Origin: Staphylothermus marinus F1
Lineage (GTDB): Archaea > Thermoproteota > Thermoprotei_A > Sulfolobales > Desulfurococcaceae
DNA length: 32,000 nt
Assembly (NCBI RefSeq): GCF_000015945.1
Contig: NC_009033.1
Location: 690,001-722,000 of the forward strand
Direction: 5' to 3'
The notes beneath the pieces were generated by a model. It searched no databases. It was not told the DNA's origin and was given only the letters and a program-made list of their open reading frames with translations. Position numbers and translations under genes: made by a program. Of this stretch, positions 1 through 29,112 are shown piece after piece (positions within the stretch are counted from its first letter, which is position 1; the number at the start of each line of letters is the position of its first letter).

Positions 1-487
1 TTCCTTCACTATAAAGACCTCATTATTTCCTCTCAGCTCCTTTCTCCTCCCATCTAGTGGCAGGACTATCTCCCCTGCTTATCCACCTTTTTAACCTCTA
101 TACCATAATTCATAGAGGCTCACCATTATATTCTATACAAATGGAGAATCATAAATAATCTATGGAAGGTTCTTTATATGAGAACCTGTTTCTTCTACAT
201 TATGGCTTTATTAAACATATGCATTCCAGAAGAGAGTAAGATCGGCTGAAACAGGCTAAATGGAGATCGAATATTTAAGTGTAGTGTTGTGGATAAAAGA
301 AATACTTCTTTCAAAGATTTTTCAATTATATATTATATATTAAGGATTATCCATGTATGTTTTGAAGGGAAAGATTTAGTGGTATATGATACTATTTTGC
401 TTAATATTCTTTAGTGTACTAATTATGTATTCTAGCTAGTTCAAATTATTTATTGGGGATAAAGATTTAAGAATGCTGTTGCTATAA

Positions 488-500
488 ATAACAGTGTTAT
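488..500 (+). promoter_or_regulatory. Candidate operator box 1, ATAACAGTGTTAT (5-bp inverted arms ATAAC/GTTAT, 3-bp spacer), between a TATA-like element and the GTG start at 511
   Basis: Read directly from the sequence: ctataaATAACAGTGTTATaaataagcggGTG. The same 13-mer recurs in gene orientation at 1881-1893, and with one central mismatch at 3485-3497. All three copies are promoter-proximal. Confidence 0.45.
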
Positions 501-510
501 AAATAAGCGG

Positions 511-1467
511 GTGGATGTTTTGAGTGAGAAAAGGTTTATACTAAAAGTGTTCCGTAACCCTATGGAAATGCTACCTCATATATGGCCTACTCCTCTAGTA
601 TTCCTTCCTAGCTTATCTGACAAAGATAGGGAAGTTTATGGAAAACTAGAGTACTTCAATCCTTTCAGCCATAGTATTAAAGATCGTGCTGTATGGAATA
701 TGGTAGTAAAGGCTTACCAAGAGTGTATTGAATGCAAGAAATTGTATGAGGCAACATCAGGTAATGTCGGAATAGCTCTTGCTTGTATATCAAATTTATT
801 AGGTATAAAGTTTAGAGCATATATCCCAAAGAATACACCTAGGATAACTGAAATTCTTCTTAAAATGCTTGGAGCGGAAGTTATTCGCACAGAGTATGAA
901 ACTATAAACCAGGAGTTTATCGAATATGTAAGAAACGCCGCAGAGAAGGATAATGCGTTAAATCTTAACCAATTTACAAATGACAACAATTTTGAAGTAC
1001 ATTATAAGTATACTGCAAGAGAATTGGAGGAGCAATTAAAAGTTATAAATAAAGTACCTCCTACTGCTATAATAGCTTCAATCGGGACATCTGGCCATAT
1101 AGGCGGAATATCAACTTACTTTAAGGAAAAATATGGGAATAGTGTTAAGATAATAGGTGTAGTGCCAGCAAAAGGAAGTGTTATACCCGGTATAAAGAGG
1201 CTAGAAACAAATCCCAAATGGTATTCCAAAGACAAAGTAGATAGAGTTATTGAAATTACAAAGGAGGAAGCAGTTAAACAAGTACTAAAAATAGCTAGAA
1301 AAGATGGATTACTTCTTGGATTAAGTAGTGGAGCCGTAGCTGCAGCCTATGAACATATAAGACAAGAATATGATAGAGGAGTATTTATACTGGTGTTTCC
1401 CGATGATTCCTTTAAATACCTTGAGATCTTTGGAGACTACCTAAGGATGCATCCAAATAATGTTTAA
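511..1467 (+). CDS. PLP-dependent cysteine synthase family enzyme (CysK/CysM/O-phosphoserine sulfhydrylase-like)
   Basis: 318-aa ORF with a GTG start. It has the PLP-lysine motif SIKDRAV, SGNVGIALA, the glycine loop GTSGHIGG and SSGA, all typical of fold-type II beta-replacement enzymes. The exact substrate cannot be assigned from sequence. Confidence 0.8.
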   Translation: MDVLSEKRFILKVFRNPMEMLPHIWPTPLVFLPSLSDKDREVYGKLEYFNPFSHSIKDRAVWNMVVKAYQECIECKKLYEATSGNVGIALACISNLLGIKFRAYIPKNTPRITEILLKMLGAEVIRTEYETINQEFIEYVRNAAEKDNALNLNQFTNDNNFEVHYKYTARELEEQLKVINKVPPTAIIASIGTSGHIGGISTYFKEKYGNSVKIIGVVPAKGSVIPGIKRLETNPKWYSKDKVDRVIEITKEEAVKQVLKIARKDGLLLGLSSGAVAAAYEHIRQEYDRGVFILVFPDDSFKYLEIFGDYLRMHPNNV

Positions 1468-1477
1468 TAAACTATCA

Positions 1478-1855
1478 TCATCCCTGGAAAATACATTCTG
1501 GATAAATAATGTCCTTAGGATTTATCCCTAGTAAGTTGAGTATGCTTTCAATCCCCTTCATCCTTAGTTCTGTACATAAATCACAGGGAGTAATATTAGT
1601 ACATTTCCTCTTTACTAAGCAATCAACCTCTTTTTTTACAATATCTCTAATTAAGGGATCCCTCTCAAGAACAACAATATATTTTGGCCTCCTTCTCCCA
1701 CTGATATAATAATTTAAAAAAGGCTGGCTAACACCAAGAAGCTTAGAGATCCCCAGTTGCGTATACCCATATTTCTCAAGAAGTTCCTTAGCAATTAATA
1801 TTCTAATAGCTGGGAGAATTCTCTTAACATAGACTTCGCAATAAGAATACTTCAA
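1478..1855 (-). CDS. Small HTH transcriptional regulator (COG2522-like) with a Cys-rich C-terminal half
   Basis: 125-aa ORF with a TTG start. The N-terminal region ILPAIRILIAKELLEKYGYTQLGISKLLGVSQPFLNYYISGRR looks like an XRE/COG2522-type helix-turn-helix. The C-terminal part has C79-x5-C85-x5-C91-x2-C94 plus C121. Confidence 0.65.
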   Translation of the reverse strand: MKYSYCEVYVKRILPAIRILIAKELLEKYGYTQLGISKLLGVSQPFLNYYISGRRRPKYIVVLERDPLIRDIVKKEVDCLVKRKCTNITPCDLCTELRMKGIESILNLLGINPKDIIYPECIFQG

Positions 1856-1880
1856 AATATCACCAAATAAATTGTAGTAG

Positions 1881-1893
1881 ATAACACTGTTAT
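1881..1893 (-). promoter_or_regulatory. Candidate operator box 2 (ATAACAGTGTTAT when read on the minus strand) upstream of the HTH regulator gene
   Basis: The plus strand reads ATAACACTGTTAT, the exact reverse complement of box 1. It lies 26-38 nt upstream of the TTG start at 1855 and overlaps a TTTATAA TATA-like element. Confidence 0.45.
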
Positions 1894-2002
1894 AAACATC
1901 ATGGTTTATACGAACTATTGCTTTATCAACAAAGATCTTGTATAAAGTAGTTTTTATTCAGTGTCTCTAGTTATGTTTAATAAAAATGATGACAGTTTGT
2001 TC

Positions 2003-2233
2003 CTATGTATTTTTTGTGACATAGACTTCATAGTATTCTCCATGATCTTCATAATCCTTTATAGAATATCCAAGCTTTCTCAATAAAATCTCTAGAACTA
2101 CTCTAGGGGCATCACTATGTTTTACAATAATTTTTAATTCACTATATCCTTCCCTTAACTTCTTATTTATAATAACTAGAGGTCGTTCTGTACACCCAGG
2201 TCCCCGATCCCTTAGATCAAGTACTTCAACCAT
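2003..2233 (-). CDS. TusA/SirA-like sulfur-carrier (sulfurtransferase) domain protein
   Basis: 76-aa ORF overlapping the sufS stop by 8 nt, which suggests an operon. The N-terminal LDLRDRGPGCTERP resembles the LD-x-RG-x-x-CP-x-P active-site Cys loop of the TusA family. It has the usual two-layer alpha/beta size. Confidence 0.6.
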   Translation of the reverse strand: MVEVLDLRDRGPGCTERPLVIINKKLREGYSELKIIVKHSDAPRVVLEILLRKLGYSIKDYEDHGEYYEVYVTKNT

Positions 2234-3482
2234 ATATCTTCACCATAAGCTCCTTTAATGAAGTAACTAGTTTTTCTATATCCTCCATGGTATTGTATAT
2301 GTAATAGCTTGCTCTAACACTACCATCTAGCAAACCAAGGTATTCATGGAGAGGTTCGGCGCAATGGAATCCTGCTCTAACACAAATATTCTTCGACGCC
2401 AACCATGTTGCTACTACTTCAGGTTTTACATTATCTCTGAAAGTAAATGCTACAAGCCCTGTTCTTTTGGTAGGGTCAAGTGGGCCAATAATCCTGATGC
2501 GATCTCCAAAGGCTTCCTGTAATTCCTTAATAAGAGTCCTAGATAATATGATCTCATGACTTCTTATGTTATTATATCCTATTTTATTAACGTATTCAAG
2601 AGCGGCTTTTAATCCTACGGCTCCAGCTACATTGGGGGTGCCTGCTTCAAATTTCCATGGTAGGTCATTGTATTTTACTTTAGTTTCCATGGTATCCCTG
2701 TTGATCAAAGTAACATTCTTTACCATATCCCCGCCCAGCATTACTGGGATCATGTTTTCGAGTAAATCTCTTCTACCCCATATTACACCAATACCCATTG
2801 GCCCAAGGATCTTGTGGGCACTAAATACTGTAAAATCAATTCCTAGGTCCCGAACATCTAGTCTTAAGTGTGGTATGCTTTGGGCAGCATCCAATACTGT
2901 TATTATATTATTCTTTCTTGCTAGACTAGTTATTTTCTTTACACTGTTTATTACTCCTGTAACATTTGATGCATGGGTAAATGCAATAACCTTTGTTCTT
3001 TCAGTTATTAAGTTTTCTATATGCTTTACTAGAACACCTTCTCTCTCACTAACTTTAGCTATCTTAACTTTTATCCCATAGGTCTTGCTCAACCTAAGCC
3101 ATGGAAGAAGATTACTATGGTGCTCCATAATAGTTGTTATTACTTCATCACCTGGTTTAAGAAAACTAAATGCTAGAGAATATGCTATTATGTTTAATGC
3201 CTCACTAGCATTTCTTGTATATATTACTTCATCCCAGGAACTAGCATTAAGGAATTTGGCAACATACTCCTTGGTGTCCTCATATAATTCTGTACTTTTC
3301 TCACTTAATTCGTACAGTCCCCTGTGTATGTTAGCATTATATTCTCTATAATAATCGGTAATGGCGTTTATGACATAATAGGGTTTCTGTGTAGTAGCAG
3401 CATTATCTAGGTATACTATATTATATCTATGTAACAAAGGAAAATCATTCCTTATTAGATAGGGGTCAAGCGATGTAGTCAC
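2226..3482 (-). CDS. sufS: Cysteine desulfurase, class V aminotransferase, SufS/CsdA (group II) type
   Basis: 418-aa ORF with a GTG start. It has the PLP-lysine motif FSAHKILGPMGIG, HHSNLLPW, and the active-site Cys loop RAGFHCAEP typical of group II desulfurases. Confidence 0.9.
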   Translation of the reverse strand: MTTSLDPYLIRNDFPLLHRYNIVYLDNAATTQKPYYVINAITDYYREYNANIHRGLYELSEKSTELYEDTKEYVAKFLNASSWDEVIYTRNASEALNIIAYSLAFSFLKPGDEVITTIMEHHSNLLPWLRLSKTYGIKVKIAKVSEREGVLVKHIENLITERTKVIAFTHASNVTGVINSVKKITSLARKNNIITVLDAAQSIPHLRLDVRDLGIDFTVFSAHKILGPMGIGVIWGRRDLLENMIPVMLGGDMVKNVTLINRDTMETKVKYNDLPWKFEAGTPNVAGAVGLKAALEYVNKIGYNNIRSHEIILSRTLIKELQEAFGDRIRIIGPLDPTKRTGLVAFTFRDNVKPEVVATWLASKNICVRAGFHCAEPLHEYLGLLDGSVRASYYIYNTMEDIEKLVTSLKELMVKIYG

Positions 3483-3484
3483 CT

Positions 3485-3497
3485 ATAACACCGTTAT
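3485..3497 (-). promoter_or_regulatory. Candidate operator box 3 (ATAACGGTGTTAT on the minus strand) immediately upstream of sufS
   Basis: The plus strand reads ATAACACCGTTAT. The box ends 3 nt from the GTG start at 3482, and a TATA-like aatatagtatta lies just upstream on the minus strand. Confidence 0.45.
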
Positions 3498-3665
3498 AGA
3501 TAATACTATATTAGCCTAAATTAAATTTTATGTCGATGCCGTTCCTTCAGCCCTCCTCAAATGTGAGCATATAGTGTTCTCGCTAACGAATAATTGAACC
3601 AAGCCCTCCACCATCTAATCGGTTTTTATATAAATAAAGAGGAGGGCCCCCAAACTAATTTTAAG

Positions 3666-3776
3666 GGCCCGGGCCGGGATTTGAACCCGGGACCTCCGGG
3701 TTTCTGTCTTTTCCCCTCTTTTATCATTGGGGGTTTGTCCACAGCCCGGCGCTCTACCGGCTGAGCTACCCGGGCC
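3666..3776 (-). tRNA. tRNA-His(GUG): tRNA-His (anticodon GUG) with encoded G-1 and a 37-nt intron at the canonical 37/38 position (about 3702-3738)
   Basis: Manual cloverleaf: G-1, acceptor GCCCGGG/CCCGGGC, D arm GCTC-AGCCGGTA-GAGC, anticodon stem CCGGG/CCCGG with loop CT-GTG-G|intron|A, variable loop AGGTC, T arm CCGGG-TTCAAAT-CCCGG, discriminator C pairing with G-1. CCA is not encoded. Confidence 0.9.
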
Positions 3777-3906
3777 ACTTATAATGGTTGCCGGGCTGTG
3801 GTTTTGTGGCCTGGGTTCTTCATCGCGTTTTTGCTCTTAGTCCGGGCCCTTTGCTGTATTCTATTATTTGTTTAGGGGTGTTTTTATAGTTTAGTATGTT
3901 TTTGAC

Positions 3907-4566
3907 TTGTTTATGTGGTGGGGGGTGGTGTTTGGTTTGGGTGGTTGTTGGTTTATTGTTTCTGGTTTTGATTGGTATCGTGGGAGGGGTGGTTGGGTTT
4001 TGTATTATCCTAATCCTTCTGGTGTTGTTGCTTCTCTGCTTGATGGAGTGGTTGTTGGGGATTGTAGTGTTCGTGGTGTTGTTTTGGATGTTGATTATTC
4101 TAGTATAGTGAGGCTTAACAGGGTCTTAGAGGAGCTTAGGCCTGTTGGTGTTGTTGGGCTTGGTCTTCACCCTCTTGCTAGTGTTCCGTTGTTGGAGGCT
4201 TCTGCTGTTAATATTTGTTTCGAAAACCATGATGGTGAGAAAACTGTTTCTAAGCTATATAGTGATTCGCCTCTGAGTATTAGTGTTCAAATAGAATTGT
4301 TTGATTTATTAAAGTATTTGTGGAGTAGGGGATACGATGTTGCACCATCAAATACTACTGGGCTTTATTTATGTAATGCTGTAGCATATACAATCTATAG
4401 GTATGCTTCTAGGAATAATTCTAAAGCATTATTCATACATATACCACCAGTTGGTATATTAAAGCATAGACTTAGTAGAACATATGTGAATATGTGGAGT
4501 ATTGATTTGTTGAAGCAACTAGTAGTTGATGTTTTAAAGTATATGGTTAAAATAAGTGATAAGTGA
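3907..4566 (+). CDS. pcp: Pyroglutamyl-peptidase I (pyrrolidone-carboxylate peptidase, peptidase C15)
   Basis: 219-aa ORF. FIVSGFDWY aligns to the N-terminal VLVTGFEPF motif, LLEASAVN carries the catalytic Glu, GLYLCNAVAY the catalytic Cys and ALFIHIPP the catalytic His. The start is uncertain (3907 or 3913) because the 5' half lies in an A-poor tract with no stop codons. Confidence 0.75.
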   Translation: MFMWWGVVFGLGGCWFIVSGFDWYRGRGGWVLYYPNPSGVVASLLDGVVVGDCSVRGVVLDVDYSSIVRLNRVLEELRPVGVVGLGLHPLASVPLLEASAVNICFENHDGEKTVSKLYSDSPLSISVQIELFDLLKYLWSRGYDVAPSNTTGLYLCNAVAYTIYRYASRNNSKALFIHIPPVGILKHRLSRTYVNMWSIDLLKQLVVDVLKYMVKISDK

Positions 4567-4570
4567 ATAG

Positions 4571-5290
4571 TTAGCTAGATAGTTTCTTCCTAATATTTAT
4601 TAAGAGGTCTGGGTAATCACTAGCAATACCATCCACTTCTCTCCTAATCATTTCATAAACTAGTTTCTCATTATTAACTGTCCAAACAACTACTTTGAGC
4701 TTAAGCTTATGTGCTAGCTGATTAGCTTTTAATGATGCTATATTATAGCGTGGAAGCACAATATTTGCTCTGAGTTTTTTAGCATCAAATAATCTACCGG
4801 GAGGCTTAAAATATATTAGTCCAGTAACAATGTTTGGAATCAATTGTTTAGCTTTTACAAGTGCTTCATCATGAAAGCTAATGATTGCTACATTATTTAC
4901 CATGTTATATTTATTGATGAGCTCCACTACTCTACGAGTAATATTTGGCTCCTTTATCTCAACAAATAAGCCAACACGATCCTTAACAAGCTCTAAAACT
5001 TCGCTCAGTAAAGGTATGTGTTCACTATCAAGCCTCAAATTATTTCTTATCCATGAATAATCCAGTTCATTAATAGATTTATTTATTCCAAATAATCTCT
5101 TAAGATCGGGGTCGTGGAAAACAATTATTTCCCCATCCCTCGTAGCCCTAACATCTACCTCAACTATTTCAACACCCAAACCAATAACATACTCTATTGA
5201 TTTCAAAGTATTCTCAGGATACCTACCAGCAGCTCCTCTATGACCAATAACTGCGAAAGGCTTAATATTTAAGAGATCAATTATACTCAA
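4571..5290 (-). CDS. Glycerophosphodiester phosphodiesterase (GDPD family)
   Basis: 239-aa ORF with the motifs IGHRGAAGRYPENT, EVDVRATRDGEIIVFHD and VVVWTVN, characteristic of the GDPD/UgpQ family. Confidence 0.85.
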   Translation of the reverse strand: MSIIDLLNIKPFAVIGHRGAAGRYPENTLKSIEYVIGLGVEIVEVDVRATRDGEIIVFHDPDLKRLFGINKSINELDYSWIRNNLRLDSEHIPLLSEVLELVKDRVGLFVEIKEPNITRRVVELINKYNMVNNVAIISFHDEALVKAKQLIPNIVTGLIYFKPPGRLFDAKKLRANIVLPRYNIASLKANQLAHKLKLKVVVWTVNNEKLVYEMIRREVDGIASDYPDLLINIRKKLSS

Positions 5291-5403
5291 AACAAGTTCC
5301 TCGAAAAAGTTTTATCTACGATATAATCTGTACTTGCTGAGTAAAATATCTTCACATAAATAAAACATAGGATAAGCTAGCTAGAAGGATTTATAGAATG
5401 ATT

Positions 5404-5565
5404 CTACTTTAGTTTAAAGCCTTTCTTAGGCCTCAAATTCTTACTCTTACATCTCCTACACTTTGTGGCTGTGGGCGGGTTTAATGCTCCACATTTACGG
5501 CAAACCTTCTTGTTTAGAACTCTATTATATACTATTTGTAGTTTTACCGGGTCCGTTATAGGCAT
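5404..5565 (-). CDS. rpl40e: Ribosomal protein L40e (eL40), 53 aa, absent from the supplied ORF track
   Basis: Manual translation gives [53 protein letters not shown], then TAG. This is the C4 zinc-ribbon CRKCG...CRRC signature of archaeal L40e. A GGGGAGGAGA Shine-Dalgarno-like sequence lies just upstream (plus-strand tctcctcccc at 5571-5580). Confidence 0.85.
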
Positions 5566-5635
5566 TATTATCTCCTCCCCAAACTATTCCCTATTATTAC
5601 TTTCCCAATTATGTTGTGGCTCGTTTATTGCTTTA

Positions 5636-7089
5636 TTATTGTTTACCCTTTATAAGTTTCTTGATTAAAAGCATTATGCTCAATACTAGTAGGTTTGCAA
5701 GTAATCCCCAGAGTCCCTCATATATGTTCCATATTCTCCCATAATAATATTTCACATATCCAACCACTATCATTCCAGCAGACATTGCTGTTACAGCAGT
5801 ATATTTATCTATTAATCCAGGCTTCTTCAACGCTATAATGTATTCTGGGAAAAACTGTACTATTCCAGCATATCCTACAAGTAATAAATAAATTAATGCT
5901 CCGGGAGCATATATTGCTAGTATAAGGCTTATCAACGCGATCAAGCATGTGAATAATCTAGCATATATTAGTAGTTGTTTCTCGTTTTTGGCGAATACAA
6001 TATTCTTTGAAAACAACGCACCAGATACGTGGAGAATTGCTGCAGCAGTAGATATTGAAGCAGCCAATGCTCCAGCACCAATTAATCCAACTATGAATGG
6101 GTTAAAGAGGGTTCTAGCTACAAGCATGAAGCTTTGATCAGCATATTCCTTTACATGTATAGGAACATTTAGTAATCCCTTAGCAACTAAGCCCACAGCA
6201 GTTAAGCCAACAAGAATAGCTGGTATTTGGCTCAACTGGTAGATCCCAACTAAAACCATGTTTCTCTTAACAGTTTCCTCATCTCTAGCGCCGAAAATGT
6301 TTTGAACACGGTTAGGCCAAAGCCAGAAAGCCATTGGTGCAATAAGGATTATCGAGTATAGAAAGTATAGATCACTAGTTGTAGGATATAAGTGAAACTT
6401 AGCACTTGGAGGTGGATTATAGCTTGTTAAGGTATTGAATAACTTGTCTATTCCGCCGAAAGCAACTATTGGCGAAACAATTCCTATAAACCATATTGCT
6501 ATAAGCATTATTGCTCCTTGCAACGCATTAATGCTTGCAACACTGACTAGTCCACCTATGATCACAAATATTGCTAGTAATGTGAAAGCCACTACTTTAG
6601 CTGTTAAAGGATCTATGTATCCATAACCTGAAACCTCAATAATATAACCCATCCCCTGGATTTGGAGCTGAACATATGGTATACTCCACAAAGCACCCGT
6701 TAAAGCAACAAATCCAGCAACAAAACGTGAATTATAGAGGTCTCTGAAGGCATCAGCAAGAGTTAACCAACCCCTCTCCTTAGCATCGCGCCAAAGCCGT
6801 GGTATTAGCCAGAACCCTATGAGATAACTAATCATACCATACAATGTTATAGCCCAAACACTAAAACCCTCACGCCAGCTAGTCCTGGAAGACCTAGGAA
6901 AGTATATGAACTATAAATATTTGCTCCAAGACTAAGCCATAATATTATTAATCCAAGTCTTCTCCCAGCAACAAACCATTCAGACGCTTTTCCCCTAACT
7001 CTTCTCCTAGTAGCTATGTAGCCGTATCCAAAAGTTATCGCTAACCATCCAGAAATTATTGATAAAGAAATTATTTCCTCAACCCCCAA
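5636..7089 (-). pseudogene. Sodium:solute symporter family (SSF) transporter split by a 1-nt frameshift near 6875-6880 (80-aa N-terminal ORF plus 402-aa ORF)
   Basis: The 80-aa ORF carries the SSF N-terminus (WFVAGRRLG...LGANIYSSYTFLGLPGLA). The other frame reads on as WREGFSVWAITLYGMISYLIGFWLIPRLWR into the 402-aa ORF. The two frames overlap at a single T (6877), so one missing base explains the split. Confidence 0.7.
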
Positions 7090-7090
7090 G

Positions 7091-7366
7091 CTAGGCTCGC
7101 CTCTCTCGACTTATAAGATACGCTGTGATCAAAAGTATGAATACGAAGATCACCCAGAACAACATATATAACCATGCAATAACAGGGTTGCCTGAAACAC
7201 TAGAATACTCCATTATCAAAGGTAATAATAAGCCGGGAATGTAAGCGAGTATTAGTAGAATAACTGGGTTCTTATGAGAACTCATTGTTTCACCAATGAT
7301 AAAATTAGAAAAACCCATGGATAATAAATATATGTATTGATGAGGTTTTCCGGCGGAACTGAGCAT
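7091..7366 (-). CDS. Small two-TM membrane protein, DUF3311-like accessory subunit of SSF transporters (likely true start ATG at 7285, 64 aa)
   Basis: Two hydrophobic helices (PVILLILAYIPGLLLPLI and VIAWLYMLFWVIFVFILLITAYLI). The stop abuts the symporter start. GGTGA lies 4 nt upstream of the internal ATG. The position matches the known pairing of small DUF3311 proteins with SSF genes. Confidence 0.55.
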   Translation of the reverse strand: MLSSAGKPHQYIYLLSMGFSNFIIGETMSSHKNPVILLILAYIPGLLLPLIMEYSSVSGNPVIAWLYMLFWVIFVFILLITAYLISRERRA

Positions 7367-7399
7367 TCCGAAGCGATGATGTACTCTTCGCTGACCCGA

Positions 7400-8014
7400 T
7401 CAGAAACTTATTCCGATCGATGATAATCTTTCGCGAATCAACGATTGTTCCTCTTCAGGGAATGCCTCAATAGATTTCTCGAGAAGCCTCTTATCAAGAC
7501 TGCCCAGTTTCTTATAGTATTCTGAAAGCTTATCAAGATCAACACCTTGCCGTGCTTTCAGAACAAAGTAGTGCTCGGGTCTAAGAACCCTCACTTTTAC
7601 ACCTTTAACATTAATTGTTCTAGCTTGGCCAAGTATTTCCTCAGGTATCTCTATATCCATGAAGTTCTCGTATAGCTCCACAATAATTTCTTTCTCACCG
7701 ACACGAGCAATGATCCTAGGTGTTCCTAGCTCAGTTGTCGAAATACCCCAGTTCTCCTTCTCAACTATTTCACGGTAGAAATCCTCCTCCACCAAGGGGC
7801 TAGGCTCATAAACAAATAGATCAACATCTCCCGTGAACAATTTAATTCTAAGAGCAAGCTGTACAACAGTATCACCTATAACAACAAACTTCACCCCATA
7901 ACTACTAAGTTTGCCGAGAACAACTGCTAGATCCTCAAGAGTATAAGTCAACCATACCACCTCCGCTCCTATTTTTATAAATGCACATAATACTATTTTT
8001 GATGAACTACTCAT
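7400..8014 (-). CDS. Nucleotidyltransferase-fold protein of unknown function (DUF2204/minimal NTase-like)
   Basis: 204-aa ORF. FVVIGDTVVQLALRIKLFTGDVDLFV resembles the G-x-A...T-x-D-x-D-L catalytic strand pair of minimal nucleotidyltransferases. The start is uncertain, and no HEPN-like partner ORF is visible nearby. Confidence 0.45.
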   Translation of the reverse strand: MSSSSKIVLCAFIKIGAEVVWLTYTLEDLAVVLGKLSSYGVKFVVIGDTVVQLALRIKLFTGDVDLFVYEPSPLVEEDFYREIVEKENWGISTTELGTPRIIARVGEKEIIVELYENFMDIEIPEEILGQARTINVKGVKVRVLRPEHYFVLKARQGVDLDKLSEYYKKLGSLDKRLLEKSIEAFPEEEQSLIRERLSSIGISF

Positions 8015-8290
8015 TTGTTAGTATATTTTAACTATTTTGAATCTTTGGAAACCCTCGTTGTCTAAATATATTTTGGCTACTAAGCTCACATTACGCTGTC
8101 TACGAATATTCTATTGTTGAGCATTCTGTGTGATTTTAAATAGTTGATATAAGGTCTCGATTGCTTCCTTAGTATAAAGAGGTTAAAAATTCCTAGTTTA
8201 AGAATGGGTAGTTGCTTAAAATAATATTTACAATTATAAATCAAAATATATTGGTTGTGGGGAAAACTAGAGGATTAGAAATGTGATAAT

Positions 8291-9337
8291 ATGGTTTATG
8301 AGAAAGAATATGTTAAGCCTAGCCCGTTTTATGAAGTATATGATGAGAAAAAGAAGATTATTAGGTGCACGGTATGTGAGAGAAGATGCGTATTAGCGCC
8401 TGGATTAACGGGTATTTGTTGGAATCATAAAAATATTGGTGGTAAACTATATAATATAGCGTATGGATTGCTCAGTGCTGTTGAGCCTAGACCTATAGAG
8501 ATCAAGCCATTATTTCACTACTACCCTAATAGTATAGCATTAACGTTTTCTGGTTGGGGATGCAATTTTCGTTGCCCATGGTGTCAGAATTACCACATTA
8601 GTTGGAGTAAGCCAGACCCAGATAAATCAATCTATATGGAGCCGAGAAAACTAGTTGAGCTAGCTAAGAAACTAAAAAATCACGGGTTATGTGCAAGTTT
8701 TAATGAACCAACTATTCATTTAGAATATCTCCTCGACGTAGGCGAATATGCTGTTAAACAAGGATTATATTTGACCATGGTAACAAATGGGTATATGACT
8801 CTTAAAACAATTAAATACTTGTTAAGACACGGCTACACAGGGTTCAGCATTGATATCAAAGGTTGCCCCTATACATATAAAAAGTATCTATCAGCTAACC
8901 CGCTCATAATATATAGGAATACAAAAACAATACTGGATCACGGCGGTCATGCGGAAATGGTTTACCTAGTTGTTCCGAAAGCTAATGATTGGAGAGAATG
9001 TTATGAATGGATAATTGATAATCACCTTAAATATCTAGGGGAAAATGTTCCATTACATATTAACAGGTATTATCCAGCAAACAAATACTATGAACCCCCG
9101 ACGAATATATCCAAACTAGTAGAGATCAAGCGTGAAGCGGAGAAAGCTGGAATAGATTACGTGTATATAGGGAATACTCCATACGAAGAATACGAGTATA
9201 CACGATGTCCTAGATGTGGTAAAGTATTAATTGTTAGAAGAAACTATAGAGTTATCAAGTGGAATCTGACAAAAGATCATCGTTGTCCCAGATGCGGATA
9301 CAAGATCAATATCTATGGAGAATATATACATAAGTAA
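8291..9337 (+). CDS. amrS: Radical SAM enzyme, AmmeMemoRadiSam-system type (PflA-like activase family)
   Basis: 348-aa ORF. It has an N-terminal auxiliary Cys cluster CTVCERRCVLAPGLTGIC, the radical SAM motif CNFRCPWCQN and a C-terminal CPRCG...CPRCG zinc ribbon. Confidence 0.8.
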   Translation: MVYEKEYVKPSPFYEVYDEKKKIIRCTVCERRCVLAPGLTGICWNHKNIGGKLYNIAYGLLSAVEPRPIEIKPLFHYYPNSIALTFSGWGCNFRCPWCQNYHISWSKPDPDKSIYMEPRKLVELAKKLKNHGLCASFNEPTIHLEYLLDVGEYAVKQGLYLTMVTNGYMTLKTIKYLLRHGYTGFSIDIKGCPYTYKKYLSANPLIIYRNTKTILDHGGHAEMVYLVVPKANDWRECYEWIIDNHLKYLGENVPLHINRYYPANKYYEPPTNISKLVEIKREAEKAGIDYVYIGNTPYEEYEYTRCPRCGKVLIVRRNYRVIKWNLTKDHRCPRCGYKINIYGEYIHK

Positions 9338-9369
9338 AATAAATACATGTAAACCAAATCGATAGATTT

Positions 9370-10722
9370 ATGTGTTCTAGGTACATATATGTAAAAGTAT
9401 ACAAAGCCGTAGAAGAGGGTTATGGTTTGAAAGCTATAACACGTATGGGTATGGCTATTTTAATAGTAGTTATAATTGCTATAGCATTAGCTGGAGTATA
9501 CTATTATACCACACAAACGGCTCCGCAAACTACCAAAACAACAACCACACAATCAACAACGCCTACTACAACTACAGCTACAACTACAACTACTCAACAA
9601 GCTAAAAAGATCAAGGTTGCAGTGGTATTTGATGTTGGTGGAAGAGGAGATCTAAGCTTTAATGATATGGCATATCTTGGAGCAGAGAGAGCTAAGCAGG
9701 AGCTCGGTGTTGATGTAGAATATTTAACTCCTAAATCACTAAATGATATGCAGCCACTCCTAGAACAACTAAGTAAGAGCCACGAATACGACGTTATAAT
9801 TCTCATAGGCTTCCTATGGACCGATCCATTAAATAAGACCGCCGACAAGTATCCTGATCAAAAATATGCATTAATAGATTCCACAACAGGTGTTGTGAGA
9901 AACAATGAGGTAGACATGCTTTTCCGCGAACAAGAATGTGCAAGCCTTATAGGAATACTAGCATCTGCGATGGCATATCAATTAAACGGATCAACAGTTG
10001 GTGCTGTTGCTGGAATGGATATTCCTCCATTATGGAAGTTCCATATAGGATACCTATTCGGAGTAAAATATTTTGAGATGAAGACGGGTAAGAAAGTAAA
10101 CTTTCTCTGGCAATACACAGGCACATTTACTGATCCACAAAAAGGATACCAGACCGCGATGCAGATGCTGCAACAAGGAGCAAAAGTCCTATATGGAGTA
10201 GCCGGTCTCACACATCTAGGAATGTTTGACGCAGTTATTGATTGGAACGAGAAAGGATATGGTAAAGCCTTTGCTATAGGACAAGATGCTAGCCAGGAAT
10301 GGTATAATCCAAACTATATACCATTAAGCGGTGCTAAAAGAGTAGATGTCGCAGTATATACTGTTATAAAAATGGTTGTTGATGGAACATGGAAAGGAGG
10401 AATACATACACTAGGACTTAAAGAGGGCGGTGTAGGAATCTGGGATCTGGACGGTGTTAAATATTTTGCTAAAATAGCATACAATGAGGGCAAGCTACCA
10501 AAGGGACTAACTCCTGATGACGTTGTTAGAATAGTTAACCAGACGAGACACAAGTACATACCCCAGTATGCATGGAATCTAGTCAATGACTTAGAACAGA
10601 AGATTAAGAATGGCGAAATAGTGTTTAAGACCCCGCAGACACATGAGGAATATGATCATATTATCCAAGAGCTCTTGCAAGGAAACTTAAATGCAGCACT
10701 GGAGAAGGGAAGTGTTAGCTAA
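9370..10722 (+). CDS. BMP-family (PnrA/Med-like) ABC transporter substrate-binding protein, membrane-anchored through an N-terminal TM helix and a Thr-rich linker
   Basis: 450-aa ORF, with a likely true start at ATG 9444 (MGMAILIVVIIAIALAG). The linker is TTKTTTTQSTTPTTTTATTTTTQQ. The core has VAVVFDVGGRGDLSFND, FGVKY and IGQD, typical of basic membrane protein family binding proteins. Confidence 0.85.
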   Translation: MCSRYIYVKVYKAVEEGYGLKAITRMGMAILIVVIIAIALAGVYYYTTQTAPQTTKTTTTQSTTPTTTTATTTTTQQAKKIKVAVVFDVGGRGDLSFNDMAYLGAERAKQELGVDVEYLTPKSLNDMQPLLEQLSKSHEYDVIILIGFLWTDPLNKTADKYPDQKYALIDSTTGVVRNNEVDMLFREQECASLIGILASAMAYQLNGSTVGAVAGMDIPPLWKFHIGYLFGVKYFEMKTGKKVNFLWQYTGTFTDPQKGYQTAMQMLQQGAKVLYGVAGLTHLGMFDAVIDWNEKGYGKAFAIGQDASQEWYNPNYIPLSGAKRVDVAVYTVIKMVVDGTWKGGIHTLGLKEGGVGIWDLDGVKYFAKIAYNEGKLPKGLTPDDVVRIVNQTRHKYIPQYAWNLVNDLEQKIKNGEIVFKTPQTHEEYDHIIQELLQGNLNAALEKGSVS

Positions 10723-10861
10723 GAAGTCTTCTCATCCAATTAAAATACTCAATAAAATATTTTTATTCTCACTTCATTAAATACTTATACCTTGTAATTT
10801 AAGTGATTACCCGGTTAAATTATTGTTTAAATTTCGATCTAAGGAGGTTTGATGCATAGAT

Positions 10862-12373
10862 ATGTCTGAAAAATATGCTGTGGAGATGGAGGATATTCAT
10901 AAAGTATATCCTGATGGAGTAGTTGCTTTAAAAGGAGTTGATTTTAGAGTTAAAAAAGGAGAAATACATGGTTTGCTCGGCGAAAATGGTGCCGGGAAAA
11001 CCACTCTTATGAGAATATTATATGGTGAAATAAAGCCTACTAGAGGAAAGATAAAGGTTTTCGGTGAAGAAGTAAGTTTCCATGGTCCATGGGATGCTAT
11101 AGCGAAAGGTATAGGAATGGTTTATCAACACTTTACACTTGTCCCCACATTTACTGTCGAAGAAAACCTGTATCTGAGCCTACTTAGTATAAATCCGAAA
11201 GCAACTATAAATGAAGCAATTGAAAAAGCTAAAAAAGCTATAGAAGCTACAGGTTTAAAGATACCGTTTAATGAAGTCATAGAAGATCTGCCTATAGGTG
11301 TTCAACAAAGAGTAGAAATAATAAAAGCATTGATTCGAGACGCTAAAATACTTATTCTCGACGAACCCACTAGTGTATTGACGCCTATAGAGGTACGCGA
11401 ATTATTCAAAGCATTGAAAAAGATGAAATCTATGGGCATAACAATTATTTTTATTACTCATAAACTCAAAGAAGTATTGGAGATTACTGATCGAATAACT
11501 GTTCTTAGAAGAGGAAAAGTTGTTGGAACAGTAGAAACAAGTAAGGTTGATGAAAAAACACTTGCTAGAATGATGGTTCAGAGAGAAGTAGTGTTTAAAA
11601 TTGAGAAGAAACCAGGCAAGTATGGTAGGGAGACTCTAGTAATCAACGATCTATATGTTAATGATGATAGAGGATTACCTGCTGTAAAAGGTGTTTCGTT
11701 AGCGATTAGAGAGGGAGAAATACTTGGGTTAGCCGGCGTTCAAGGTAATGGGCAGAGAGAACTTGCTGAAGCTGTTGCTGGTATAAGGCCTGTTGTTCGT
11801 GGAAAAATAGTTTTCGATGGGAAAGATGTCACGAATCTAGATGCATATAATAGATATAAGATCGGTATCGCATATGTTCCTGATTCTAGAAAAATTGGCC
11901 TTATAGGAGAAATGAGCATTGTTGAAAACGTTGTTCTCACAAATCTGTATAGAGTACTAAGTAGAAAGTTTAGAATGATAAGTTGGGGAAAGGCTTCAAG
12001 TATTGCAGATGAAGTGGTTAGGAAGCTTGAAGTAGTTGCGCCAAGTATTAATGCTCCGATTAAGTACTTGAGCGGCGGTAATCAACAGAAAGTAATGGTT
12101 GGCAGAGAGATTGTTCGTGAACCTAAGGTTTTCATTGTTGCAGAGCCTACGCAGGGATTAGATGTTGCAGCAACAGAGTTTATTAGGAAAACTCTTCTCT
12201 CGCTACGAGACCGTGGTAAAGCAGTTTTATTGATATCGACTGATCTAGATGAGATTCTTCAGTTAAGTGATCGGATAGCTGTTATATATGAAGGTAAAAT
12301 CATGGCTGTAGGTAAGCCTGAAGAGTTTACACTTGAGAGACTGGGCTTGTTAATGGGTGGTGTTCATGGCTAA
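10862..12373 (+). CDS. ABC transporter ATP-binding protein with duplicated ATPase domains (sugar/nucleoside uptake type)
   Basis: 503-aa ORF. Walker A is GENGAGKTT, the signatures are LPIGVQQRVEI and LSGGNQQKV, and Walker B is ILILDEPT/VFIVAEPT. An AGGAGG sequence lies upstream. Confidence 0.9.
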   Translation: MSEKYAVEMEDIHKVYPDGVVALKGVDFRVKKGEIHGLLGENGAGKTTLMRILYGEIKPTRGKIKVFGEEVSFHGPWDAIAKGIGMVYQHFTLVPTFTVEENLYLSLLSINPKATINEAIEKAKKAIEATGLKIPFNEVIEDLPIGVQQRVEIIKALIRDAKILILDEPTSVLTPIEVRELFKALKKMKSMGITIIFITHKLKEVLEITDRITVLRRGKVVGTVETSKVDEKTLARMMVQREVVFKIEKKPGKYGRETLVINDLYVNDDRGLPAVKGVSLAIREGEILGLAGVQGNGQRELAEAVAGIRPVVRGKIVFDGKDVTNLDAYNRYKIGIAYVPDSRKIGLIGEMSIVENVVLTNLYRVLSRKFRMISWGKASSIADEVVRKLEVVAPSINAPIKYLSGGNQQKVMVGREIVREPKVFIVAEPTQGLDVAATEFIRKTLLSLRDRGKAVLLISTDLDEILQLSDRIAVIYEGKIMAVGKPEEFTLERLGLLMGGVHG

Positions 12374-20861: not shown

Positions 20862-21748
20862 ATGCGAAAACAAATAACTGTTACTGGGGGTAAGGGGGGA
20901 CAGGTAAGAGCTTTGTAGCAACTAATTTAGCAGTCTTATTATCAGATAGATACCCCACTGTACTAGCCGATCTCGATCTAGAGGCCCCAAATGATCATAT
21001 ACTACTTGGAGTAGAGAAACTAGAGAACGAAGAACCTATCAAGGCATTCCTACCCTTCATAGATACGAAGAAATGTACAAGATGCGGTGTATGCGCGAAA
21101 ATATGTGATACTGGAGCAATACTTATGCCACCAAATAGTCTCCCAGTAATATTTCCTAGATTATGTGGTGGATGCAAAGCATGCTACTATGCATGTCCCT
21201 ACAATGCTATATTGAAGGGATACCATGTACTAGGCTATAGCTATGTGACAAAAGTCACCATAGATAATCATAGTTTCATACTTGTCACCGGCATATTGAG
21301 GGAAGGAGAAGAACATACCCCGCCAGCAGTGGTTGCTACTAAGAATAGAGCTAAAAAGATTGATCATGAATTAATGATTGTAGATACTGGGGCGGGAACA
21401 GGTAACCAGATATCAATAGCGCTTCAAGGATCAGATCTAGTCATAGCTGTAACTGAAGCAACCCCGCTGGGACTACATGATCTCGAATCAATATTGAAGG
21501 TTACAAGCGATATGGACTTAGAAACAATAGTTGTAATCAACAGGTATGGTTTAGGCAGAATCGACAAACACGTGGAGACTATGAAGAAATATAGTGTGAG
21601 AACGTATTTTAAAATACCATACCATGTCGATGCTGTTGAATCATATATTAAAGGAAAACCAATTGTTATATACAAGCCTGACTCAATTGTTTCTAAGAGC
21701 ATTCATCAAATACATGAATACATTGTTAAGGAGTTGCTTGGGAAATGA
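20862..21748 (+). pseudogene. MinD/ParA-superfamily P-loop ATPase with an inserted 2x[4Fe-4S] ferredoxin domain (COG1149-like), frameshifted inside the Walker A codons
   Basis: From ATG 20862 the frame reads MRKQITVTGGKGGQVRAL and then a stop. The +2 frame opens at 20894 as GGTGKSFVATNLAVLLSDRYPTVLADLDLEAPNDH...CTRCGVCAKICDTGAI and runs into the 207-aa ORF (CGGCKACYYACPYNAI, DTGAGTG). One extra G in the G6 run at 20894-20899 would restore GKGGTGKS. Confidence 0.75.
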
Positions 21749-22734
21749 GTAGTGGAGGACTCGAAATAGTTGTGGCAAGTGGTAAGGGAGGAGTTGGAAA
21801 ATCAACAATAACATCTTCATTAGCACTAGTCTTAGCTGAGAAAAAACTTGATTTCATAGCCGTAGACGCTGATGCTGAAGCTCCAAACCTAAACATTGTT
21901 CTAGGAATAACTAATTGGGACGAGATAGAACCATATTATGAAGGCAGATACGCTGAGATCGTACAGGAGAAATGCATTAATTGTGGAGAATGTATGAATG
22001 CATGTCCATTTAACGCTGTTGAGCTTATCAATAATAAATATGTTATTAACAAATGGATATGTGAAGGCTGCTATACATGCAGCTTTGTATGCCCTACAAA
22101 AGCTATAAGAATAATCAGGGATATTGTAGCTGGCTATGTTAGAATAAAATATAGAACACCCTACGGATTCCCCCTCGTATCAGGCGAACTAGTGCCTGGT
22201 AGGCCTAACTCGGGTAAACTAGTGACCGAGGTAAAGAATAGAGCAAGGAAGATTGGTGGAAAAGATGCTATTCTACTAGTAGATGCTGCTGCAGGTATTG
22301 GTTGCCAAGTAATATCTAGTCTTGCCGGAGCACATATGGCGATCCTTGTAGCAGAGCCTACACCAGCTAGTCTAAGCGATCTCAAGAGAATACATAAATT
22401 AACAAAACACTTCATGATACCCTCCGCACTAATAATTAACAAATACGATATGAATCCAGAGTATTACGGGATCATTAAGGATTATGCTTTAAAAGAAAAC
22501 ATTGATTACCTAGGAGAAATACCCTTCGATGATCACATTGCTGAATCAATTGCAAACATGGAGCCACTACTAATAAAATATCCTGATTCACCAGCTGCAA
22601 CAGCTATAAGAAAGATAAGTTTGAAAATTATAGATATACTTGAGAACTATAGGGAATGGAGAATAAAGCATCTACCTCCAAAAATGGAGCCATTCATACC
22701 CATAGTTATAAAACCTAGAGAAACACATACATAG
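21745..22734 (+). CDS. MinD/ParA-superfamily P-loop ATPase with an inserted 2x[4Fe-4S] ferredoxin domain (COG1149-like), intact paralog
   Basis: 329-aa ORF. Walker A is ASGKGGVGKST and the ferredoxin motifs are CINCGECMNACP and CEGCYTCSFVCP. It also has DAAAGIG. Its ATGA overlap with the upstream paralog suggests translational coupling. Confidence 0.85.
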   Translation: MSSGGLEIVVASGKGGVGKSTITSSLALVLAEKKLDFIAVDADAEAPNLNIVLGITNWDEIEPYYEGRYAEIVQEKCINCGECMNACPFNAVELINNKYVINKWICEGCYTCSFVCPTKAIRIIRDIVAGYVRIKYRTPYGFPLVSGELVPGRPNSGKLVTEVKNRARKIGGKDAILLVDAAAGIGCQVISSLAGAHMAILVAEPTPASLSDLKRIHKLTKHFMIPSALIINKYDMNPEYYGIIKDYALKENIDYLGEIPFDDHIAESIANMEPLLIKYPDSPAATAIRKISLKIIDILENYREWRIKHLPPKMEPFIPIVIKPRETHT

Positions 22735-22742
22735 ATGAAAAG

Positions 22743-23081
22743 GTGGTCAACATGGTTAGAATAGCGTTTCCAACAGATAAGGGTGGATTAGATGATTACA
22801 TATATGATAGGTTCGGTAGAGCACCAACATTTACAATTATAGAAGTAGAAGATGGTGAAATTAAGAATGTTAAAATAATTGAAAACCTAGGACATCGAGC
22901 AGTTAGTGGTGCGGGAATAAAAGCTGTTCAGAAACTTATTGAGGAAAAAATAGATGTTGTTGCAGGACCCAATCCAGGCCCCAATGCATATATGGCTTTA
23001 CAACAAGCAAATATCAAGGTTATATCAATGCTTGGATTAAAAGTTAAGGATGCTATCGAACACGTGATTAAACAACTTTAA
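22743..23081 (+). CDS. NifX/NifB-C-terminal-like (dinitrogenase FeMo-cofactor-binding fold, COG1433) small protein
   Basis: 112-aa ORF, with a probable start at ATG 22752. RIAFPTDKGGLDDYIYDRFGRAPTFTIIEV...GAGIKAVQKLIEEKIDVVA matches the NifX/NafY-like domain pattern (hFG.a..f.i.d). Confidence 0.75.
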   Translation: MVNMVRIAFPTDKGGLDDYIYDRFGRAPTFTIIEVEDGEIKNVKIIENLGHRAVSGAGIKAVQKLIEEKIDVVAGPNPGPNAYMALQQANIKVISMLGLKVKDAIEHVIKQL

Positions 23082-29034: not shown

Positions 29035-29112
29035 GGGCCCGTGGTCTAGCCTGGTTAGGACGCCGCCCTCACACGGCGGAGGTCCGGGGTTCAAATCCCC
29101 GCGGGCCCACCA
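29035..29112 (+). tRNA. tRNA-Val(CAC): tRNA-Val (anticodon CAC), intron-less, with encoded 3' CCA
   Basis: Manual cloverleaf: acceptor GGGCCCG/CGGGCCC, D arm GTCT-AGCCTGGTTA-GGAC, anticodon stem CCGCC/GGCGG with loop CT-CAC-AC, variable loop AGGTC, T arm CGGGG-TTCAAAT-CCCCG, discriminator A, then CCA. Confidence 0.92.

Follow-up and report, generated by a model that had tools for sequence, protein, structure and literature searches.

The window analyzed here, a stretch of 32,000 nucleotides from the Staphylothermus marinus F1 genome (contig NC_009033.1, positions 690,001 to 722,000), contains what appears to be a compact, autoregulated sulfur regulon. A 13-bp box, ATAACNNNGTTAT, has exactly three matches in the 32,000 bases (488-500, 1881-1893 and 3485-3497), and these lie in three promoters within 3 kb, ahead of a CysK-like gene, the gene for a 125-amino-acid helix-turn-helix (HTH) regulator, and the gene pair sufS-tusA-like. 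We consider it very probable, on sequence evidence, that the regulator binds the box and controls its own gene, and likely, judging from where the box sits in the promoters, that it acts as a repressor. Taken as a whole, we lean toward a dimeric repressor that controls its own gene along with cysteine supply and sulfur mobilization and whose DNA-binding state is set by a labile Cys-ligated cofactor, most likely Fe-S. That an Fe-S cluster is the signal actually sensed is a more tentative proposal. The comparative data speak for the regulator-operator pairing, for autoregulation and for a regulon of sulfur and Fe-S genes; that the protein binds as a dimer, that its cofactor is Fe-S and which way the switch works are points that we infer.

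The exact search agrees with the original prediction, which had reported ATAAC-N3-GTTAT three times and nowhere else in the 32 kb and had given the box sequences and gene orientations correctly. With 100 dinucleotide shuffles of the window as the chance level, 0.08 boxes were expected, and none of the 100 shuffles reached three. No exact box was found at any other promoter of the window. Three exact copies in three promoters are a real, non-random feature. Allowing one mismatch gave six more matches in the window, five in coding regions and one after tRNA-Val, with none in a promoter; we rejected these copies as additional members of the regulon because five of the six are in coding regions.

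Box 1 (488-500, plus strand) reads ATAACAGTGTTAT, a perfect 6-1-6 palindrome that ends 10 nt before the GTG511 start of the CysK-like gene. The same perfect palindrome forms box 2 (1881-1893, minus strand), 25 nt upstream of the regulator's TTG1855 start, and box 3 (3485-3497, minus strand) reads ATAACGGTGTTAT, has one inner arm base off the dyad, and ends 2 nt before GTG3482 of sufS. The arms ATAACA and TGTTAT are reverse complements of each other, which leaves the center as the sole asymmetric base. From 30 non-redundant sites, taken from the window and related loci, the consensus is tATAACA-S-TGTTATa. Positions that the search had left free also follow the dyad (A at position 6 and T at position 8 in 73% each, flanking T/A in 68%), and this extension into unconstrained positions fits a symmetric site for a dimer. 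The box had been described as oriented, with an asymmetric xGT center. This description had to be given up: the same central base at three sites has a chance of 1 in 4, and at many related sites, for example in L005 and L013-L020 (the numbers denote the loci of the comparative scan below), the central base is C in gene orientation and thus flipped.

The position of the boxes relative to the core promoters fits repression. Archaeal TATA boxes are centered ~26 nt upstream of the transcription start site, and the interval between TATA box and start is where archaeal repressors block the preinitiation complex or the recruitment of RNA polymerase. The TATA-like element of the CysK-like gene, TATAAATA (483-490, plus strand), overlaps the 5' edge of box 1; with transcription then predicted to begin near 511-513, the mRNA would have no leader or almost none. 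Ahead of the regulator gene, which has a Shine-Dalgarno-like GGTGAT motif before its TTG start, are two candidate TATA-like elements within 1890-1910 (minus strand): TTTATAA at 1890-1896 overlaps box 2, and TATAAA at 1905-1910 leaves box 2 downstream. For sufS, the TATA-like AATATAG (3506-3512, minus strand) lies upstream of box 3 and points to a start near 3483, so that box 3 would span about -15 to -3. A protein bound to the box would fill the TATA-to-start interval at all three promoters. That each box overlaps a TATA-like element or closely follows one, near the start codon, can be read directly from the window, as had been claimed.

The box accompanies the regulator far beyond S. marinus. 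A scan of 185,579 species genomes with a profile of the regulator returned 68 loci, a metagenome scan added 80, and exact look-ups contributed L069-L072; genes in these loci were called as longest open reading frames (ORFs), which is crude and makes distances to starts approximate. The 650 kb around regulator homologues contain 27 exact boxes, compared with 1.35 expected from block shuffles (maximum, 5), an enrichment of ~20-fold. Almost every one of these boxes is no more than 150 nt from a start, and there are none deep within a gene. The core TAAC-N3-GTTA was present in 21 of 136 non-redundant windows upstream of the regulator, compared with ~1 expected. Exact boxes 9 to 50 nt upstream of the regulator occur in Desulfurococcales, Nanohaloarchaea-like contigs, Aenigmatarchaeota and Micrarchaeota (L001/L002/L074, L013/15/17-20, L027/36/37/51/60, L050/67 and L069/73). 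The box also precedes CysK-like genes in L001, L005 (two boxes), L010, L069, L070 and L074 and NifU_N genes in L001, L006 and L074. A variant, TTAAC-N3-GTTAA, is found ahead of the regulators in L062, L064 and L065, the last with the regulator divergent from sufC-sufB. Two expectations were supported, namely, that the box is enriched in related genomes at promoters of sulfur and Fe-S genes (the 27 copies are found at the starts of the regulator, CysK-like, NifU/IscU-like and other genes) and that it stays with the regulator or its operon in orthologous and very distant loci. Its retention at regulator, CysK-like, NifU-like and suf genes likewise speaks for the proposal that it is the operator of the local HTH regulator in an autoregulated regulon.

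In the closest orthologues, L069 and L073 (83% protein identity), both the regulator and the CysK-like gene are still preceded by boxes. Phylogenetic footprinting with these two loci was uninformative, as their whole intergenic regions are 86 to 92% identical, so the argument is carried by distant loci. Three Desulfurococcales contigs with regulators ~48% identical (L001, L002 and L074) encode regulator-TusA, ThiF, SufS, CysK-like, NifU_N and TusA-like proteins. Each contains five boxes, placed before the regulator, CysK-like and NifU_N genes and as two conserved one-mismatch copies. The latter are twin boxes, ATAACAC[AG]TTTAT, ~74 bp apart between the divergent ThiF and SufS genes (L001, 6643-6655 and 6717-6729; L074, 4142 and 4216). 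They are conserved in the three independent contigs and may be lower-affinity or cooperative operators.

In a further set of loci (L005/L079, L006, L010 and L070), the regulator is inside an operon and the box or boxes stand ahead of the first gene. The operon of L005 reads CysK-like-regulator-SufS-classV-NifU-TusA-like, and that of L070 reads CysK-like-regulator-FTR1. Across the Thermoprotei loci the CysK-like gene is the most constant neighbor of the regulator, and a small TusA-like gene follows the NifU-like genes in L001, L005, L006 and L074. The L070 region (2964-12026, Thermoprotei), in which the gene after the regulator encodes an FTR1 iron permease, also contains two P-type ATPases, NikR, CbiMNQO, a cation-efflux protein and TusA-ThiF, surroundings that hint at a link of the regulator to metal homeostasis.

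In more distant phyla the same palindrome is found beside other sulfur and Fe-S genes. Nanohaloarchaea-like contigs have ATAACACTGTTAT at -19 of the regulator, beside genes for TtuA-type tRNA thiolases. In Aenigmatarchaeota the box is flanked by the regulator on one side and a radical-SAM Taw1-like gene on the other, and SufS is close by. The micrarchaeal locus L050 (5944-10965) runs box-regulator-sufB-sufD-sufC-sufS in a single direction; its regulator is without C6 and has a C-terminal C-x-C-x2-C-x9-C.

A sister branch of the family, mainly from Bathyarchaeia and including most metagenomic members, has a different palindrome and different neighbors. Here the regulator is divergent from a gene for a flavodiiron protein (FDP), followed by a DUF438-hemerythrin-PAS gene, and the palindrome TTACAATTGTAA lies ~60 nt upstream of the regulator start in the shared intergenic region (L023, 5928-5939, and ~60 other loci). 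The two operator classes separate completely by sulfur or FDP context. The A-type box (ATAAC-N3-GTTAT) was found in 12 sulfur contexts, 6 others and no FDP context, compared with no sulfur context, 4 others and 58 FDP contexts for the B-type box (TTAC-N4-GTAA). A regulator that itself reads the palindrome would be expected to show just this pattern, in which protein branch, operator and target change together. A covariation between the recognition helix and the operator (T/S at residue 32 for A-type boxes, K for B-type boxes) is confounded by phylogeny and was not used as evidence. Family neighbors include Fe-S assembly, sulfur relay (TusA, ThiF and TtuA), a radical-SAM enzyme, and the O2/NO-detoxifying FDP with hemerythrin, a spectrum that, by analogy, mirrors that of the bacterial Fe-S-sensing Rrf2 regulators.

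The regulator of the window is 100% identical to ABN69786.1 (S. marinus F1). Its gene (1478-1855, minus strand; 125 amino acids from TTG1855) encodes an N-terminal XRE-type HTH, with an HTH_3 match at residues 23 to 59 (26.7 bits; cutoff, 23), and then a helical C-terminal domain. The AlphaFold2 model is all-helical with a predicted local distance difference test score of 92.7, except for a short N-terminal strand (residues 3 and 4) that pairs with residues 116 and 117; in the model, this pairing would pack the C6-bearing N terminus on the C-terminal segment. HTH_3 (PF01381) is matched by 125 of 137 family members. Pfam returned only generic HTH models for the regulator and the 137 members, and NCBIfam gave no match for the regulator. 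PDB sequence and Foldseek searches found XRE cores only, none of them significant for the whole fold (best Foldseek neighbors SinR, DdrO and HipB, at E > 0.6). An exhaustive profile search gave 1,923 clusters at 50% identity with E ≤ 0.001 and 762 with E ≤ 1e-10, which makes the family a large one. Members were found in Thermoprotei, Caldarchaeales, Bathyarchaeia, Aenigmat-, Micr-, Nano- and Nanohaloarchaeota and in Asgard metagenome-assembled genomes (MAGs). The members are named only "predicted transcriptional regulator" or "hypothetical" at their sources.

By sequence the family is apparently archaea specific. L013, L020 and L046, short contigs binned as Campylobacterales or "Acidoferrum," encode typical archaeal members with an archaeal-type box or Bathyarchaeia-type neighbors, and their bacterial labels are probably due to MAG misbinning. 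Two members, P0035 (226 amino acids) and P0050 (247 amino acids), each contain the regulator twice, in tandem, within a single polypeptide; such "fused dimers" would fit binding of the dyad by two HTH units.

The S. marinus regulator has cysteines at positions 6, 79, 85, 91, 94 and 121. The original prediction had drawn attention to a cluster C-x5-C-x5-C-x2-C plus one more Cys; this is right for S. marinus (C79, C85, C91 and C94, plus C121), and C91 and C94 are family-wide, but C79 and C85 are lineage specific, and C6 had been overlooked. Among 137 diverse members C6 is conserved in 99% and C91 and C94 in 96% each. Conservation extends to E7, P15, R18, Q33, Q44, Y50 and R55, and the pair C6-E7 is nearly invariant. 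C79 and C85 are found only in the nearest relatives, with a spacing of x5 in S. marinus and L069, x6 in L074 and L001, and x7 in P0010; C121 is confined to the Desulfurococcales-type branch. A Cys near position 104 and a second CxxC are additional features of about half of the members, and several have exactly three cysteines.

We hypothesize that a homodimeric XRE-type HTH repressor binds tATAACA-S-TGTTATa and, when bound at the three core promoters, would block the recruitment of TBP/TFB or RNA polymerase. This would jointly shut down the CysK-like gene (cysteine supply), sufS-tusA-like (sulfur mobilization and the first acceptor) and the regulator's own gene (negative feedback). C6 and C91-x2-C94, with C79, C85 and C121 added in the S. 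marinus lineage, would hold a labile Fe-S cluster, and the DNA-binding form would report Fe-S/sulfur sufficiency. Loss of or damage to the cluster under demand, oxidant or metal stress would then release the repressor. IscR and SufR follow the same logic, and their scaffolds are unrelated to that of the regulator. We favor a cluster because the regulon holds cysteine desulfurases, IscU-like and SufBCD scaffolds, sulfur carriers and Fe-S enzymes, because the O2/NO-defense targets of the sister branch match the functional range of the bacterial Rrf2 cluster sensors, and because a three-Cys core is typical of labile sensor clusters.

Several observations weigh against this model. For the closest relatives in L003, L004 and L007 (41 to 45% identity), the box is missing and there are no sulfur genes in the vicinity. 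The window itself holds a cluster of Fe-S-related genes (21125-23081) for a Fer4 protein, a small Nitro_FeMo-Co (NifX/NifB-like) protein and a NUBPL/MinD-like P-loop ATPase that carries a ferredoxin insert, and by the window search this cluster has no box at its promoters. The cysteine set is uneven, in that the micrarchaeal members heading suf genes are without C6, the Aenigmatarchaeota members L027 and L036 are without CxxC, and C79/C85 are confined to one lineage. A site of three or four cysteines would, moreover, equally fit zinc or a thiol switch.

The sensing models are inseparable by sequence data. S. marinus is a sulfur-dependent organism, which would suit a metal-free thiol switch in which persulfide, polysulfide or an oxidant links C6 with the CxxC in a di- or polysulfide bridge and releases the repressor, as in SurR, CstR and SqrR. 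The universal set of three thiols including a CxxC, the persulfide makers and carriers encoded by the regulon (SufS, TusA-like and, in relatives, ThiF), and the O2/NO-defense genes adjoining the sister subfamily are all compatible with such a switch, but nothing among them sets it apart from a cluster-based sensor. Members with 6 to 8 cysteines (CxxC...C...CxxC) look more like metal or cluster sites, and the regulation of suf- and isc-type genes is classically tied to cluster occupancy (PMC8593673). We regard the thiol switch as rather unlikely. We give somewhat less credence to a regulator with structural zinc or with Fe/Cu/Zn sensing, or one that takes its signal from a small molecule of cysteine metabolism or from a complex with the CysK-like protein, as in Bacillus CymR-CysK. 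The CysK-like gene is the regulator's tightest partner, adjacent or in the same operon in the window, L005, L006, L010, L069 and L070, and in L070, L001 and L010 the pair is placed among genes for the FTR1 iron permease, P-type ATPases, NikR, CbiMNQO, a cation-efflux protein and CutA1. However, most members, including those of DPANN and Bathyarchaeia, have no CysK-like neighbor, and purely structural zinc would not account for why the family as a whole is linked to Fe-S, sulfur and O2-stress genes. In known CysK complexes the terminal Ile of the partner docks into the CysK active site; the C termini of the regulators are not conserved and have no conserved terminal Ile, and we therefore rejected a CymR-like docking of the regulator into CysK.

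It is very unlikely that the box is a promoter element or is read by another factor, with its occurrence next to an HTH gene being incidental. The box is AT-rich and overlaps TATA-like sequence, its binding by the regulator is a prediction from sequence, and the high overall identity of the nearest relatives' intergenic regions gives no footprint resolution. Nevertheless, the box tracks the regulator gene across phyla in which the flanks are otherwise unrelated, the excess of its core upstream of regulators is far above chance, and no other promoter of the window has it. The sister subfamily, moreover, has a different palindrome that changes in step with protein and neighbors.

The proposed repressor resembles several known systems in function but not in fold. 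IscR, a [2Fe-2S] protein of the Rrf2 family in Escherichia coli and other bacteria, is a small HTH repressor that acts on its own gene and on cysteine-desulfurase and scaffold genes via inverted repeats, much as we propose here, and its sensor, built from three C-terminal cysteines and one further ligand, adds to the likeness. The IscR ligands are spaced C92-x5-C98-x5-C104-x2-H107 (PMC8593673). C79-x5-C85-x5-C91-x2-C94 of S. marinus has the same spacing, a likeness that extends to the closest relatives only and that we take as a lead and not as evidence of homology. The two proteins differ in that IscR has an Rrf2 winged helix, whereas the regulator has an XRE-type HTH and would work at an archaeal TATA/TFB promoter. 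The Rrf2 model (PF02082) had no match at E ≤ 0.01 for the regulator and was not among the top 25 families of the 137 members, nor was any Rrf2 structure among the regulator's PDB sequence or fold matches.

SufR (COG2345, [4Fe-4S]), known from cyanobacteria and actinobacteria, is an autoregulated holo-repressor of sulfur-mobilization genes with a perfect palindrome in suf promoters (PMC8593673). A comparable signature is seen here at the level of sequence, with the box before the regulator and sufS in the window and before regulator-sufBDCS in L050. The L050 layout corresponds to that of actinobacterial sufR-sufBDCS operons (PMC6034842). The SufR motif C-x12-C-x13-C-x14-C is, however, absent from the regulator, in which the cysteine spacing differs. 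Domain searches of the regulator and the 137 members revealed no sequence or domain relationship to SufR, which has a DeoR/ArsR-type domain, and the operators are dissimilar (ATAACA-N-TGTTAT for the regulator and CAAC-N6-GTTG for SufR).

In Bacillus and Staphylococcus, CymR is a regulator of cysteine metabolism tied to CysK, and here the CysK-like gene is both the most constant neighbor and a target of the box; CymR is, however, an Rrf2 protein without a cluster, and the regulator has no conserved C-terminal docking residue. The NsrR/RsrR-type Rrf2 sensors invite comparison with the sister subfamily, which is paired with targets of the kind that cluster-based NO/O2 sensors control. The use of three cysteines is common to both, and the acidic E7 close to the N terminus is near-invariant in the regulator family; the folds are unrelated, and it is speculation that E7 is a cluster ligand. 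Among archaea, SurR of the Thermococcales is a sulfur-responsive regulator with a CxxC and a short palindrome with a 3-nt spacer. It has a double winged-helix fold, its CxxC belongs to the DNA-binding domain at the N terminus, and it recognizes GTT-N3-AAC and controls hydrogenase and sulfur-reduction genes. In contrast, the CxxC of the regulator (positions 91 to 94) is in the C-terminal domain, its site AAC-N3-GTT has the inverse arrangement, and a predicted target is a cysteine desulfurase. By these sequence comparisons the regulator is a member of the XRE HTH superfamily and not of the Rrf2, SufR or SurR families, since it has no domain match to them, a different Cys motif and a different operator.

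We put forward, with less than even confidence, the broader idea that the regulator is the founding example of an archaea-wide family of Fe-S- or persulfide-sensing factors that join a Cys-ligand domain not described before to an XRE HTH and are the archaeal counterpart of IscR, NsrR and RsrR, one branch acting through tATAACAnTGTTATa and the other through TTACAATTGTAA. If so, the tATAACAnTGTTATa branch would govern genes for Fe-S assembly, the cysteine/sulfur relay and tRNA thiolation, and the TTACAATTGTAA branch would govern O2/NO defense (flavodiiron protein and hemerythrin). A literature search found no transcription factor assigned to archaeal Fe-S assembly or sulfur trafficking (SUF, the minimal IscS/IscU pair, TusA, ThiF and TtuA). 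In the full texts searched there was also no paper on the family, the motif or a regulator of archaeal suf, isc or tusA genes, although papers outside the searched collection are possible; this is in line with the original prediction, which knew of no characterized member of the family with such a role. Functionally, the system would be an IscR/SufR-like feedback control, that is, an Fe-S/sulfur homeostasis repressor of a known kind that uses a new scaffold and belongs to the archaea, for which we found no such regulator assigned.

The analysis yields a candidate regulator family, two operator classes and a predicted regulon in many phyla, including unculturable DPANN, Bathyarchaeia and Asgard-related MAGs. 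The operator motifs can be used at once for annotating regulons in archaeal metagenomes. The regulator is small and thermostable, which suits electrophoretic mobility shift assays, spectroscopy and crystallography. Should the Cys triad bind a cluster, the IscR/SufR feedback logic would have been invented independently in this family, with another scaffold for binding DNA and a new fold for holding the cluster.

The genes that flank the regulator in the window differ in how firmly they can be named. The CysK/CysM-like pyridoxal phosphate enzyme (511-1467, plus strand; 318 amino acids, GTG511 start, alternative TTG520) has a clear PALP domain (Pfam, 191.6 bits) and contains both the SIKDR lysine and the TSGNVG loop. 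Its scores are below the NCBIfam equivalog cutoffs for cysKM (187 versus 344), cysM (185 versus 394) and cysK (160 versus 351), and we therefore label it CysK-like only, a putative enzyme of the cysteine synthase or O-phosphoserine sulfhydrylase type. SufS (2226-3482, minus strand; 418 amino acids, GTG3482 start) is a group II cysteine desulfurase (TIGR01979, 480.3 bits, cutoff 475.1; Aminotran_5, 439.8 bits). The adjacent gene (2003-2233, minus strand; 76 amino acids), which overlaps sufS by 8 nt and is by this arrangement predicted to be translationally coupled to it, encodes a divergent candidate for a TusA-like sulfur carrier. Its match to Pfam TusA (PF01206) is weak, at 19.3 bits with a cutoff of 28.6. 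Cys14 (in the motif GCTxxP) and Pro18 are invariant over 7 homologues, including true TusA proteins, and align with the catalytic Cys-Pro (Cys-Pro-x-Pro) of bona fide TusA, for example, that encoded at L001:5231-5461 (56.8 bits).

About 170 nt upstream of the sufS promoter is an intron-containing tRNA gene (3666-3775, minus strand; Rfam, 61 bits), which is unrelated to the regulon. It was missed by ARAGORN, which reported only tRNA-Val at 29035-29112. The sequence after this tRNA gene, from 3780 to 4110, is strongly G+T rich, and the ORF at 3907-4566 encodes a pyroglutamyl peptidase (Peptidase_C15) with an implausible N-terminal extension rich in Gly, Val and Trp; its true start is probably near residue 36 or later.

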